From Shigella phage SP21535: a DNA stretch of 64,000 nucleotides. The DNA lies in sequence record PQ615101; one strand, 5' to 3'. Of this stretch, positions 4,111 through 23,826 are shown one piece after another; within the stretch, counting starts at the first letter, position 1; every line of letters begins with the position of its first letter. The notes below the pieces were generated by a model that was given only the letters and a program-made list of their open reading frames with translations, did no database searches and was not told the DNA's origin. The translations under genes and the position numbers were made by a program.

Positions 4111-4370
4111 CTTTTGATGAATTTAAAAATGTTATGATGAGTCAGCATTTTGAATGTGAAGTAAAAGATGATATTGGGCATAAAGAAATTATTGAATATT
4201 GGTTTGAACCCCTAGAGGTTGAAGATAATTGTATTAAAAAGGTTACGGTATGCACTGACTGGGCTGTATCTTTTAACTTCAACATTTTAGATAATGACAC
4301 GCCTAAATCATTGCGAGATATGGCTGTATCTTGTATTAAGGATGCATACTGTGAAGTTTTCGACATTTGA
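4107..4370 (+). CDS. hypothetical protein
   Basis: ORF translationally coupled to gene 47 stop. Confidence 0.45.
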   Translation: MTFDEFKNVMMSQHFECEVKDDIGHKEIIEYWFEPLEVEDNCIKKVTVCTDWAVSFNFNILDNDTPKSLRDMAVSCIKDAYCEVFDI

Positions 4371-13316: not shown

Positions 13317-14057
13317 ATGATTAATAACTCTATGACAGTTGAAGAAATCCGTCTTTATTTGGGAATTGCATTAAAGGAAAAAGATTTCGTAATTGATAAA
13401 ACCGGTGTTAAAACTATTGAAATTATTGGTGCATCATTTGTAGCAGATGAACCTTTTATTTTTGGCGCTCTTAATGATGAATACATTCAGCGTGAACTTG
13501 AATGGTATAAGTCTCAAAGTTTGTTTGTTAAAGATATTCCAGGTGAAACGCCAAAGATTTGGCAACAGGTAGCATCTTCTAAAGGCGAAATTAACTCGAA
13601 TTATGGTTGGGCCATCTGGTCAGAAGATAACTATGCTCAGTATGACATGTGTTTAGCTGAACTTGGTCAAAATCCTGATTCTCGACGTGGTATCATGATT
13701 TATACTCGTCCATCTATGCAGTTTGACTACAATAAAGATGGTATGTCAGATTTCATGTGTACGAATACAGTACAGTACCTGATTCGTGATAAGAAAGTCA
13801 ATGCAGTGGTTAACATGAGAAGTAATGATTGCTGGGCAGGCTATCGTAATGATTATGCATGGCAAAAATATGTACTAGATAAATTAGTATCTGATTTGAA
13901 TGCAGGTGATTCAACTCGTCAGTATAAAGCAGGTTCCATTATATGGAATGTCGGGAGCCTTCATGTGTATTCCCGTCATTTTTATTTGGTTGACCATTGG
14001 TGGAAAACTGGCGAAACTCATATTGCGAAAAAAGATTATAACGGTGAGTGGAAATGA
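13317..14057 (+). CDS. 42: dCMP hydroxymethylase gp42
   Basis: 246-aa product near-identical to T4 gp42 as recalled (MI..SMTVEEIRL...HWWKTGETHI). Confidence 0.95.
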   Translation: MINNSMTVEEIRLYLGIALKEKDFVIDKTGVKTIEIIGASFVADEPFIFGALNDEYIQRELEWYKSQSLFVKDIPGETPKIWQQVASSKGEINSNYGWAIWSEDNYAQYDMCLAELGQNPDSRRGIMIYTRPSMQFDYNKDGMSDFMCTNTVQYLIRDKKVNAVVNMRSNDCWAGYRNDYAWQKYVLDKLVSDLNAGDSTRQYKAGSIIWNVGSLHVYSRHFYLVDHWWKTGETHIAKKDYNGEWK

Positions 14058-14896
14058 TTCAATTCGTAATTCCAAGCTATCAACGCGTAGGGGCAGTTTC
14101 TGCCCTTGATATGTTTCCGACTGATTATGAACCTCATATTGTAGTACGTGAACATGAAGAAAAAGCTTATTATGACGCTTACGGGTCTAGAGCTAAAATT
14201 ATAACTATTCCTGATGATGTTAATGGAATTGCTGGTACTCGTAAAGCAATTACTGATATGTATGCAGGTCAACGAATTTGGATGATTGATGATGATACTA
14301 CTATTCGTATGAGTTCAATACGAAAGAGAGACGATAAACGGCGTGTAGATAAAGTCAATCAATTGACTCGTGAGCAATTCTATGAATTAATTCAATACGT
14401 TGAGGATGCAATGGATTGCGGGTATTATCATGGTCATGCTCGTTTACCAATTTTTAAAATTACTTCATCTTGGGGTAATTATCGTGAAAATTCATATGGA
14501 TTCACGAATACATGGTATGATTTAGGAAAACTTACAACAGAACAAATTGGGTATGGAAAAATTGATTTATGTGAAGATATGTATGCATTTCTCAATTTAA
14601 TTAATCAAGGTTATCCGCATTTGGCCTTGTTCAAATATCTAGTTGTATCTGGAAAAGCACAAGCTCCTGGCGGATGTAGTTCAATTCGTAGTAATTCAAA
14701 ACATAATAGAGCTCTTGAGCAAATCAATAGAGAGTTTCCAGAGCAAGCTCGTTGGAAAACATCGAATATTGAAAAACGAAAATCGTTGGGTGAAGAAGAT
14801 GAACCGCTAAAGGTTCTTCGCATGTGTGTTTCGCGTAAAGAAAAATCAGAAGCATTTCATAAGTTTAATGCTATTCATCCAATAGCAGTTGATTAA
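14054..14896 (+). CDS. GT-A-fold (GT2-like, DxD) glycosyltransferase at the beta-gt locus
   Basis: N-terminal FVIPSYQR and WMIDDDT motifs typical of GT-A enzymes; start overlaps gene 42 stop (ATGA); does not resemble T4 beta-gt. Confidence 0.6.
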   Translation: MIQFVIPSYQRVGAVSALDMFPTDYEPHIVVREHEEKAYYDAYGSRAKIITIPDDVNGIAGTRKAITDMYAGQRIWMIDDDTTIRMSSIRKRDDKRRVDKVNQLTREQFYELIQYVEDAMDCGYYHGHARLPIFKITSSWGNYRENSYGFTNTWYDLGKLTTEQIGYGKIDLCEDMYAFLNLINQGYPHLALFKYLVVSGKAQAPGGCSSIRSNSKHNRALEQINREFPEQARWKTSNIEKRKSLGEEDEPLKVLRMCVSRKEKSEAFHKFNAIHPIAVD

Positions 14897-14973
14897 TGCC
14901 TAAATTTATTGTGTTATAATTACCCTATCTTTAACCAGTGAGGAAAATATAATGATGCTTATGGAAAAAATGA

Positions 14974-15903
14974 ATGTCTATTGCAGATTTAAAATCCCGT
15001 TTGATTAAAGCTTCCACTTCTAAAATGACTGCTGAACTGACTACATCTAAATTCTTTAATGAAAAGGATGTAATCCGTACAAAAATCCCAATGCTTAATA
15101 TCGCTATTTCTGGCGCGATTGATGGCGGCATGCAGTCTGGTTTAACTATTTTCGCAGGGCCTTCTAAACACTTTAAATCAAATATGTCTTTGACTATGGT
15201 TGCGGCATATTTAAACAAATATCATGACGCAGTTTGTCTATTCTATGATAGCGAATTTGGTATTACTCCAGCTTATTTGCGATCCATGGGAGTTGACCCG
15301 GAACGAGTAATTCATACGCCAATTCAGTCAGTTGAACAGCTGAAAATTGATATGGTGAACCAGCTTGAAGCTATTGAGCGTGGTGAAAAGGTTATTGTAT
15401 TCATCGACTCAATCGGTAATATGGCTTCTAAGAAAGAAACGGAAGATGCCTTGAATGAAAAATCTGTGGCAGATATGACTCGTGCTAAATCACTGAAGTC
15501 ATTATTCCGTATTGTTACTCCTTATTTTAGCATTAAAAATATTCCATGTGTTGCGGTTAACCATACAATTGAAACAATTGAACTGTTTAGTAAAACCGTG
15601 ATGACAGGTGGTTGTGTTATTGCTGGTACTAAAATCCAGATGTCCGATGGTTCTACTAAAGCAGTTGAAGATATTCGTCCAGGTGAGCGTGTTAAAACCA
15701 TGGTCGGTGATAATGAAGTAACTTATGTTTGGGACCCCGAAACTCTGGCTGAAGGTACTCCTGAATGTTTCGAAATTGAATTCGAAGACGGTTATAAAGT
15801 AACTACTTCAGATACTCACAAGTTCCTGGTAATGGTTAAAGACATTCCAACTTGGGTTGAAGCTAAAGATTTAGTAGCTGGAATGGATTGTGTTGTAAGG
15901 TAA
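14974..15903 (+). CDS. uvsX: UvsX recombinase N-terminal fragment (aa 1-213) fused to N-terminal split-intein half (96 aa)
   Basis: N-part matches T4 UvsX through ...FSKTVMTGG, then CVIAGTKIQMSDGS... (intein block A) and TTSDTHKF (block B), then stop. Confidence 0.85.
   Translation: MSIADLKSRLIKASTSKMTAELTTSKFFNEKDVIRTKIPMLNIAISGAIDGGMQSGLTIFAGPSKHFKSNMSLTMVAAYLNKYHDAVCLFYDSEFGITPAYLRSMGVDPERVIHTPIQSVEQLKIDMVNQLEAIERGEKVIVFIDSIGNMASKKETEDALNEKSVADMTRAKSLKSLFRIVTPYFSIKNIPCVAVNHTIETIELFSKTVMTGGCVIAGTKIQMSDGSTKAVEDIRPGERVKTMVGDNEVTYVWDPETLAEGTPECFEIEFEDGYKVTTSDTHKFLVMVKDIPTWVEAKDLVAGMDCVVR
15613..15900 (+). other. N-intein half (Hint domain N-terminal splicing region)
   Basis: Begins with Cys right after the UvsX sequence breaks off; blocks A and B present. 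Confidence 0.8.
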
Positions 15904-15907
15904 TAAA

Positions 15908-15947
15908 TATGGGTACCGGACTAATGTATATTTTTGAGGTACCCATA
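15908..15947 (+). promoter_or_regulatory. hairpin occluding RBS/start codon of the homing endonuclease gene
   Basis: Perfect 10-bp inverted repeat TATGGGTACC / GGTACCCATA with 20-nt loop; right arm covers GAGG and first base of the ATG. Confidence 0.5.
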
Positions 15948-16669
15948 TGAATTTTGTCTATAAAATTGTGTTCAACGATAGAATTAAAAACGGCACTCCG
16001 CCATATTACTACATAGGGAGCAAGACAAATGCTTCTTATGTAGATGGTAAGATTATTGACGCCCACGGTCGTGAGTACTATGGCTCATCGAGATATCCCG
16101 GATATCATGATTTTATCAATAATGTTACTGTTGAAATATTGGAGCAATATGATGATATTAAACACACTAAACTGCTAGAGCGCGAAAATTTCTATCAGAA
16201 ACAAGTAAATGTTAAAACAAATCCAGATTATTTTAATTTAGATTATGCTTGTGGGCATAATTCATATGCTAATGCTGATTTTGCATCATACAAGCATTAT
16301 ATAACAGGTAAATGTATTCGTCTTGAAAGAAACCATCCGCTTGTTAAATCTGGTGTGTATGTTGGCGTCACAAAAGGCGTGAAATCTTCTGATGAACACC
16401 GCAAGCACATATCAGAAGGTATTACCGGAGAAAACAATGGGTTCTATGGTAAGAAACACACTAAAGAAACAATTAATAAAATATCAGAAAAAGCAAAGAA
16501 AAGATTAAAGCATTCCCATCCTAGACAAAAAGGTGTTATCATAAACGGTATTGAATACCGGGGCGTCAGACCTGCTGCAAGAGCGTTGGGAATTAATCCT
16601 AACACAATTATCAACAAAATTAAAGCTAATATAAAAGGATGGGCTTATGCAGTAGATGCACGCGGTTAA
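15947..16669 (+). CDS. GIY-YIG homing endonuclease, I-TevI-like
   Basis: VYKIVF...YYIGSK (GIY-YIG), ERENFYQKQVN (compare I-TevI ERENFWIKELN), GENNGFYGKKHT NUMOD-like, C-terminal HTH-like tail. Confidence 0.85.
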   Translation: MNFVYKIVFNDRIKNGTPPYYYIGSKTNASYVDGKIIDAHGREYYGSSRYPGYHDFINNVTVEILEQYDDIKHTKLLERENFYQKQVNVKTNPDYFNLDYACGHNSYANADFASYKHYITGKCIRLERNHPLVKSGVYVGVTKGVKSSDEHRKHISEGITGENNGFYGKKHTKETINKISEKAKKRLKHSHPRQKGVIINGIEYRGVRPAARALGINPNTIINKIKANIKGWAYAVDARG

Positions 16670-16717
16670 GGCATTCGAAGATATGGTAAAAGAATTTGGA
16701 ATGAACATGACAATCAA

Positions 16718-16745
16718 GATTATGCTTTCATGAAATATGTATATT
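16718..16745 (+). promoter_or_regulatory. candidate MotA-dependent middle promoter for the uvsX C-terminal fragment
   Basis: tatGCTTtcA followed by TATATT at appropriate spacing. Confidence 0.35.
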
Positions 16746-16777
16746 GAAACTAGCTACTACGAAACACAAGGTAAAGT

Positions 16778-16882
16778 ATGAAAATTAAATCTGTTAAATC
16801 TGTTGGTAAAAAAGAAGTCTATGATTTGTCTGTTGCTGACGTCGAGCATTATGTTTTAGAAAATGGTATCGTTACACACAAC
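16778..16882 (+). other. C-intein half
   Basis: Block F/G consensus VYDLxV...H..ENGIVTHN, next residue Thr. Confidence 0.8.
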
Positions 16883-17425
16883 ACAGGCGTAATGTATTCG
16901 GCTGATACTGTATTCATTATCGGTAAGCGCCAGATTAAAGATGGTTCTGATCTTCAGGGGTATCAATTTGTTCTAAATGTAGAAAAATCTCGTACCGTTA
17001 AAGAAAAAAGTAAATTCTTTATTGATGTTAAATTTGACGGTGGCATCGATCCTTATTCTGGATTGTTAGATATGGCTCTTGAATTAGGATTTGTGGTAAA
17101 ACCTAAAAATGGCTGGTATGCTCGTGAATTTCTTGACGAAGAAACAGGCGAGATGATTCGCGAAGAAAAATCTTGGCGTGCAAAAGATACCAACTGCACT
17201 ACATTCTGGGGTCCTTTATTTAAGCATCAGCCATTCCGAGATGCTATTAAACGTGCTTATCAGTTAGGTGCTATTGATAGTAATGAAATTGTTGAAGCTG
17301 AAGTTGATGAATTAATTAACTCAAAGGTTGAAAAATTTAAATCTCCAGAAAGTAAAAGTAAATCAGCAGCTGATTTAGAAACTGACCTAGATCAGTTAAG
17401 TGATATGGAAGAATTTAATGAATAA
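16778..17425 (+). CDS. uvsX: C-terminal split-intein half (35 aa) fused to UvsX C-terminal fragment
   Basis: MKIKSVKSVGKKEVYDLSVADVEHYVLENGIVTHN (blocks F/G ending HN) followed by +1 Thr and TGVMYSADTVFIIGKRQ... matching the UvsX C-terminal region. Confidence 0.85.
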   Translation: MKIKSVKSVGKKEVYDLSVADVEHYVLENGIVTHNTGVMYSADTVFIIGKRQIKDGSDLQGYQFVLNVEKSRTVKEKSKFFIDVKFDGGIDPYSGLLDMALELGFVVKPKNGWYAREFLDEETGEMIREEKSWRAKDTNCTTFWGPLFKHQPFRDAIKRAYQLGAIDSNEIVEAEVDELINSKVEKFKSPESKSKSAADLETDLDQLSDMEEFNE

Positions 17426-21907: not shown

Positions 21908-23247
<1,340 letters not shown>

Positions 23248-23307: not shown

Positions 23308-23826
23308 ATGGCTCACTTTAATGAATGCGCTCATTTGATCGAAGGTGTTGATAAAGCAAATCGTGCATATGCTGAGTATATTATGCACAGTATTGACCCA
23401 TTGCAGGTTATGCTTGACATGCAGCGGCATTTACAGATTCGTTTGGCTAATGATAAACCAGAAACAAATCGTCATCCCGATTCACTTGAAACTGCAGGAG
23501 AAGTTCTTGCTTGGCTGCGAAACCAAGACGATTATATCGCAGACGAAACTCGCGAGTTATATACTTCTCTTGGTGGTATGAGTAATGGTGAAAAAGAAGC
23601 TTCTGCTGTATGGAAACCTTGGAAGAAACGTTATTCTGAAATGCAATCCAAGAAAATTCAAGATTTATCTCCTGAAGATCAACTTGAAATTAAATTTGAA
23701 CTGATTGATCAATTTCACTTTTTCATGAATAAATTCATTGCTCTTGGAATGTCAGCTGAAGAAATCTTTAAACTTTATTATCTGAAAAATGCTGAAAATT
23801 TCGCTCGTCAAGACCGAGGTTATTAA
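23308..23826 (+). CDS. 56: dCTP pyrophosphatase (dCTPase/dUTPase) gp56
   Basis: MAHFNECAHLIEGVDKA...; MazG-like; RBS AAAGGAAAA. Confidence 0.85.
   Translation: MAHFNECAHLIEGVDKANRAYAEYIMHSIDPLQVMLDMQRHLQIRLANDKPETNRHPDSLETAGEVLAWLRNQDDYIADETRELYTSLGGMSNGEKEASAVWKPWKKRYSEMQSKKIQDLSPEDQLEIKFELIDQFHFFMNKFIALGMSAEEIFKLYYLKNAENFARQDRGY

Follow-up and report, generated by a model that had tools for sequence, protein, structure and literature searches.

The genomic slot between gene 42 and uvsX holds, in phage T4, the beta-glucosyltransferase gene beta-gt (GT63, PF09198, PDB 1JG7) together with the homing endonuclease gene segA. In the 64,000-nucleotide stretch of Shigella phage SP21535 DNA that we analysed (record PQ615101; referred to below as the window), segA is absent, and the same slot carries an open reading frame (ORF) whose product contains the motifs VIPSYQR and IDDD. 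The original prediction for this ORF, made from the letters of the sequence, was that it encodes a GT-A-type glycosyltransferase in place of T4 beta-gt, and that this may be the second-step transferase of phages T2 and T6, which adds a further glucose to alpha-glucosylated 5-hydroxymethyl-dC (hmC) and would thereby change how the phage evades restriction. We asked which glycosyltransferase the ORF encodes, and what modification of the phage DNA would be expected from it.

The ORF lies at 14054–14896 on the + strand, with an ATG at 14054 and a stop codon at 14894–14896, and encodes a protein of 280 residues. An alternative GTG start appears in the ORF list at 14048, 6 nt earlier; the annotation of T2 and T6 uses the ATG that corresponds to 14054. 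VIPSYQR occupies residues 5–11, and IDDD occupies residues 78–81 (nt 14285–14296). The upstream neighbour is gene 42 (13317–14057, +), encoding the dCMP hydroxymethylase that is the source of the hmC precursor (Pfam PF00303, Thymidylat_synt; 94.7% identity to T2 gp42), and the downstream neighbour is uvsX, which starts at 14974. The coordinates, motifs and neighbours named in the original prediction were thus all correct, and the gene order is that of T2 and of T6. The window and T4 share 93% DNA identity until about position 14040; homology is lost across the ORF and is regained at about 14986, inside uvsX, indicating that the beta-gt locus is indeed occupied by another sequence. Since the stop codon of gene 42 and the start codon of the ORF overlap as ATGA, the two genes are probably co-transcribed and translationally coupled. 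A scan for sigma-70-like promoters and for terminators of the ORF identified none above chance (23 sigma-70-like matches versus 21.5 expected). Base composition gave no signal of foreign origin, the GC content being 35.3% for the ORF and 35.0% for the window.

Comparison with known families placed the product of the ORF clearly. It matches Pfam PF20691 (TET-associated glycosyltransferase, TAGT) at 41.2 bits (cut-off, 27.5) over positions 2–205 of the 205-position profile, and it matches PHROG 842, 'beta-glucosyl-HMC-alpha-glucosyltransferase', with E = 1.3e-88. Across all 280 residues, identity reaches 98.2% with the T2 enzyme and 97.5% with the T6 enzyme (YP_010067197.1). This comparison bears most directly on the proposal of a T2/T6 second-step transferase, and upholds it. 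The T4-like alpha-glucosyltransferase gene that had been noted upstream was also found: alpha-gt, which encodes the first-step enzyme that makes alpha-glucosyl-hmC, lies at 1712–2914 (+; PF11440, E = 2.4e-236; 98.75% identity to T2 alpha-gt). Gene 56 (dCTPase/dUTPase), which belongs to the hmC replacement pathway, lies at 23308–23826 (+; 98.3% identity to the T2 homologue by tblastn), such that alpha-gt and genes 42 and 56 all occur in the window together with the ORF. Every feature of the T2/T6 gene that could be checked, namely the Pfam score, orthology, locus, GT-A fold, conserved residues and co-occurrence, was found here. We conclude with high confidence that the ORF encodes a T2/T6-type beta-glucosyl-HMC-alpha-glucosyltransferase (ba-gt, also called g-gt or TAGT), the second-step transferase that makes gentiobiosyl-hmC.

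The gene is common among related phages. A tblastn search of 50,697 phage records gave matches in 688, with at least 95% identity in 472 of them and a best match of 99.6% identity. Nearly all of the 472 records belong to Tequatrovirus phages whose hosts are Escherichia, Shigella, Yersinia and Salmonella; homologues with 60–80% identity form a further group, found in Klebsiella, Enterobacter and related T4-like phages. The ba-gt annotation is already present on many of the 688 records. The wider family comprises 2143 representatives in an exhaustive profile search (E <= 0.001), and a narrower homologue search returned 11. The gene was reportedly cloned and sequenced from both T2 and T6 by Winkler & Ruger in 1993 (NAR 21:1500). 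For the T6 enzyme, a GT-A fold and a sister relation to GT2 have already been stated (PMC13216743), as has the synteny of TAGT with T4 beta-gt (PMC13390438). Gene, fold, locus and phenotype are all published, and this ORF adds no new biology to them. For TAGTs in general, function has been called 'yet to be defined', and homologues have also been found beside beta-GT or alone (PMC13216743); hence, specificity is not uniform across the wider TAGT family.

We examined the fold and the conserved residues of the protein. An AlphaFold2 model based on a 10-sequence alignment (mean pLDDT 73.5, pTM 0.75) has a GT-A fold and does not have the two Rossmann domains of a GT-B enzyme. Its weak loops are at residues 125–138, 147–150 and 203–211, the last of which spans a conserved GG motif. 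Conservation was measured across 153 aligned family members with 20–65% identity to the window protein, which keeps R11 (99% conserved), D79 (99%), D80 (100%), D81 (96%), D175 (100%), G186 (99%), G206 (99%), G207 (100%) and R212 (97%). R11 is also invariant in a 78-sequence alignment, in which DDD, D175, G206, G207 and R212 are likewise invariant or close to it; R11, a near-invariant residue, closes the N-terminal 'PSYxR' motif that follows strand 1 (codons S8-Y9-Q10-R11, 14075–14086, +). The DxD-type motif D79-D80-D81 (GAT GAT GAT, 14288–14296, +) follows strand 74–77 of the model. The conserved 'ED' motif E174-D175 (14573–14578, +), in which E174 is 79% conserved, lines up, in a profile match below threshold, with the 'eeD' of a GT2 beta-1,3-glucosyltransferase. 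The mere occurrence of a DxD tripeptide would be no evidence; here, on the strength of the family alignment, we judge that the motif is beyond chance, since it is 96–100% conserved in the 153 members and is placed after strand 74–77, at the GT-A DxD position. The statement in the original prediction that T4 beta-gt lacks a DxD motif holds for the mechanism but fails for the string of letters, since T4 beta-gt contains 'DYD'.

PDB sequence searches with the single protein and with the 78-sequence family profile yielded no significant relative, and no family member has a solved structure. The best PDB match, to a de novo TIM barrel (E = 0.006), was rejected as spurious, no stretch of it being significant by itself. 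The GT2 enzyme 9jma was reached with the family profile at E = 1.1 only; this sub-threshold alignment pairs IPSYxR, DDD and ED with GT2 motifs, with R11 opposite the N-terminal motif 'IPTYNRPE' of 9jma, and appears consistent with the fold result. Analogy to GT2 enzymes, drawn from the E = 1.1 alignment and from fold matches of 10–17% identity, suggests roles for the conserved residues: D79, D80 and D81 are most likely ligands of a divalent metal and of the UDP-sugar diphosphate, D175 of the ED motif is likely the candidate catalytic base of an inverting GT2-like enzyme, and R11 and R212 would probably bind the nucleotide-sugar or DNA.

Cellular GT2 enzymes with a GT-A fold (TarP 6h1j, TarS 5tze, AvpGT 9jma, and the catalytic domains of cellulose and hyaluronan synthases) are 6–17% identical to ba-gt, which differs from them in its modified-DNA acceptor and in the family-specific GGCSxxR motif at residues 206–212. 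A check of CAZy GT2 membership by sequence found no match to a Pfam GT2 family (e.g., Glycos_transf_2) at E <= 0.01; the relation of ba-gt to GT2 is at the level of the fold only. The TET/JBP-associated glycosyltransferases, which are the founding members of PF20691, belong to the same Pfam family, and the window protein covers the whole 205-position profile. The hmC of the window is made on the nucleotide by a thymidylate-synthase-like hydroxymethylase, whereas a TET/JBP dioxygenase acts on DNA, and no TET gene was seen beside ba-gt among the neighbouring genes in the window.

The pathway that we propose takes its substrate, product and defence phenotype from published orthologues, and the identity, fold, conserved residues and gene context from this analysis. 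Genes 42 and 56 would replace dC with 5-hydroxymethyl-dC, and alpha-gt (1712–2914) would then, after replication, attach an alpha-linked glucose to hmC in DNA. In the last step, ba-gt would move a second glucose from UDP-glucose to the 6-OH of the first glucose, with anomeric inversion leading to a beta-1,6 linkage and to alpha-gentiobiosyl-hmC as the product. A beta linkage formed from UDP-alpha-glucose is the expected outcome of an inverting GT2-like GT-A enzyme.

For substrate and product, this scheme draws on published work on orthologues. LC-MS of ten natural Tequatrovirus isolates that carry alpha-GT and TAGT detected alpha-glucosyl-hmC and gentiobiosyl-hmC, and no beta-glucosyl-hmC (PMC13390438). 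When ba-gt is deleted from T6, the glycosylase Brig1 can degrade the DNA in vitro, and the phage itself becomes more sensitive to Brig1; that the mutant DNA carries only alpha-glucosyl-hmC was the authors' presumption, made without measurement (PMC11078745). The glucosidase BapA releases glucose from the DNA of T6 delta-g-gt and releases none from wild-type T6 DNA (bioRxiv 10.64898/2026.02.25.707755). Brig1 excises alpha-glucosyl-hmC in vitro and does not excise gentiobiosyl-hmC, and BapA is unable to take glucose off gentiobiose; cutting by GmrSD and BrxU persists (PMC13216743; PMC11078745; bioRxiv 10.64898/2026.02.25.707755). In T-even phage, ba-gt decides between mono- and di-glucosylated hmC, and in this way alters how sensitive the phage is to sugar-reading defences. 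The altered restriction evasion that had been anticipated for the window gene has been demonstrated experimentally for the T6 orthologue (PMC11078745). For the phage studied here, we predict from the intact R11 and DDD that the enzyme is active, and that the virion DNA is rich in gentiobiosyl-hmC. The pattern of modification is predicted to be closer to that of T6 and most natural Tequatrovirus isolates than to that of T4, i.e., T6-like DNA that carries gentiobiosyl-hmC along with some alpha-glucosyl-hmC and some bare hmC, and that lacks beta-glucosyl-hmC.

The amount of gentiobiosyl-hmC is not the same in all phages with this gene. Classic chemistry, as cited in later papers, puts it at 5% in T2 and 72% in T6 (PMC13390438; PMC13216743; PMC11078745). 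The window gene shares with T2 and T6 ba-gt the slot between 42 and uvsX, the alpha-gt partner, the Pfam family and the PHROG, and its product differs from theirs by 5–7 substitutions, none of them known to matter. At residues 89, 95 and 97, the window protein has I, K and R, whereas T2 and T6 both have M, R and C. At residue 11, it has R where T2 has H. Codon 11, at 14084–14086 of the window, is CAT (His) in all eight T2/SV76 records (15031–15033 of the fetched stretch of PV648364; the second T2 record fetched was PV958097). Among the three non-T2 records that were fetched and aligned at this codon, together with the window, it encodes Arg throughout, as CGC in the window and SYGD1 and as CGT in RB32 and Bas44, and T6 also has Arg. 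None of roughly 453 other records contains an 80-nt segment identical to that of T2. These sequences suggest that R11H may be a candidate reason for the low gentiobiosyl-hmC content of T2. The DxD-type motif reads DDD in the window and DD in the T6 record. Two GAT codons are present in the T6 record (NC_054907 / AP018814; 3235–3240 of the fetched T6 stretch, the counterpart of window 14288–14296) and in phage HP3.2, and three GAT codons are present in the other 471 records. A GAT triplet repeat is prone to slippage, and the DD of T6 could be a true feature, a mutation of the laboratory stock or a sequencing error.

A broader reading of these differences is that R11 or H11, three or two GAT codons, and the loop at residues 89–97 together set the share of DNA that is di-glucosylated. 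We regard this as unlikely. If it were true, the window allele (R11, DDD, I89/K95/R97) would lead to a level of modification, or a sequence-context preference, unlike those of T2 and T6, and ba-gt would be a gene through which sensitivity to glycosylase-based and GmrSD-type defences can be tuned quickly. Very unlikely, in our assessment, is a weak or inactive allele in an otherwise intact gene, as seemingly in T2, such that the DNA of the phage would be essentially alpha-monoglucosylated. The T2 precedent counts for this reading, since a near-identical gene there goes with gentiobiosyl-hmC of only about 5% as cited (PMC13390438; PMC11078745), but the residue altered in T2, R11, is intact in the window protein, as are all the other near-invariant residues. 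I89, K95 and R97 depart from the common allele, but they sit in a poorly conserved loop, and the nearest allele in the database is 99.6% identical. Natural isolates with this same set of genes have a gentiobiosyl-hmC fraction of 40–67% (PMC13390438).

The least probable reading, to which we give hardly any credence, is that ba-gt is a first-step transferase that places beta-glucose directly on hmC, standing in for T4 beta-gt in function without being homologous to it. The gene does occupy the exact slot of T4 beta-gt, and a beta linkage is expected of an inverting GT2-like enzyme, but beta-glucosyl-hmC is undetectable in phages with alpha-GT and TAGT (PMC13390438). The roughly 25% of hmC that alpha-gt leaves bare in T2 and T6 would be a possible substrate, and yet this fraction stays unglucosylated in both phages (PMC11078745; bioRxiv 10.64898/2026.02.25.707755). 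Solitary TAGT homologues do exist in phages without alpha-GT and beta-GT (PMC13216743); however, deletion of the 97.5% identical T6 gene gives Brig1-degradable, BapA-sensitive DNA, consistent with alpha-glucosyl-hmC replacing gentiobiosyl-hmC (PMC11078745; bioRxiv 10.64898/2026.02.25.707755).

That the ORF is T4 beta-gt itself can be dismissed, since BLASTP gave no full-length alignment to it (best match, 7 residues, E = 3), there is no PF09198 match, and tblastn with T4 beta-gt found nothing below E = 1.5 anywhere in the 64-kb window. The T2/T6-type ba-gt of the window and T4 beta-gt sit in the same genomic slot, use UDP-glucose as the donor, and are alike in creating a beta linkage on phage hmC-DNA by an inverting transfer. 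They differ in fold, which is GT-A for ba-gt and GT-B for T4 beta-gt, and in acceptor, which is the glucose of alpha-glucosyl-hmC for ba-gt and the hydroxymethyl group for T4 beta-gt. We also observed a 25-nt patch of 96% identity between window 14874–14898, at the 3' end of ba-gt, and the T4 intergenic sequence just upstream of segA (4239–4263 of the fetched T4 stretch), within an otherwise non-homologous cassette. This patch may be the remnant of a recombination junction at which beta-gt plus segA and ba-gt are exchanged for one another. SegA cuts in uvsX (PMC2988022).

Other features were observed at the upstream end of the gene and elsewhere in the window. Phage SYGD1 (MW883059) has an additional 154-aa hypothetical ORF (2226–2690 of the fetched stretch) between gene 42 and ba-gt; hence, SYGD1 lacks the ATGA overlap that is present in the window, T2 and T6. 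We conclude from the SYGD1 ORF that the 42/ba-gt junction is another insertion hot spot. A hairpin, GGGCAG TTT CTGCCC, with a 6-bp G+C-rich stem, lies at 14088–14108 (+), 35 nt into the coding region of ba-gt, and is unchanged in six phages despite variable synonymous sites nearby. It might be an RNA structure that acts on expression downstream of gene 42, or it might reflect mere codon constraint. A gene for a Dam-like DNA adenine methyltransferase, with 98% identity to T2 Dam, is present at 22468–23247 (+). In Tequatrovirus isolates, a Dam-like gene goes with a ratio of hmC to alpha-glucosyl-hmC to gentiobiosyl-hmC of 1:2:2, the ratio otherwise being about 1:0:2, a relationship that is a correlation only (PMC13390438).

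The downstream neighbour, uvsX (14974–17425, +), is divided into two genes: a split intein interrupts it, and a free-standing homing-endonuclease gene (HEG) lies between the halves. The first gene (14974–15903, +) encodes the UvsX N-extein (213 aa) and IntN (96 aa, starting with Cys). The HEG (15947–16669, +) encodes 240 aa with a NUMOD3 match, a PHROG homing endonuclease match and an N-terminus that looks GIY-YIG-like. The second gene (16778–17425, +) encodes IntC (35 aa, ending in ...THN) and the UvsX C-extein (Thr+1, 180 aa). Conceptual splicing gives a 393-aa UvsX with 90% identity to T4 UvsX, free of gaps at the junction. Only 27 phage records contain the uvsX IntN; they span several Straboviridae genera, and in them the pieces are always annotated separately, once as 'portal protein'. 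Within the literature library that was searched, no description of a uvsX split intein was found; the layout is that of the 'fractured genes' that Dassa et al. 2009 described from metagenomes (PMC2677866). Directly before the ATG of the HEG, at 15906–15949, is an inverted repeat, ATGGGTACC ... GGTACCCAT. Since the 3' arm of this repeat includes a GAGG ribosome-binding site, the repeat could sequester translation initiation of the HEG, by analogy with other free-standing endonucleases of phages.
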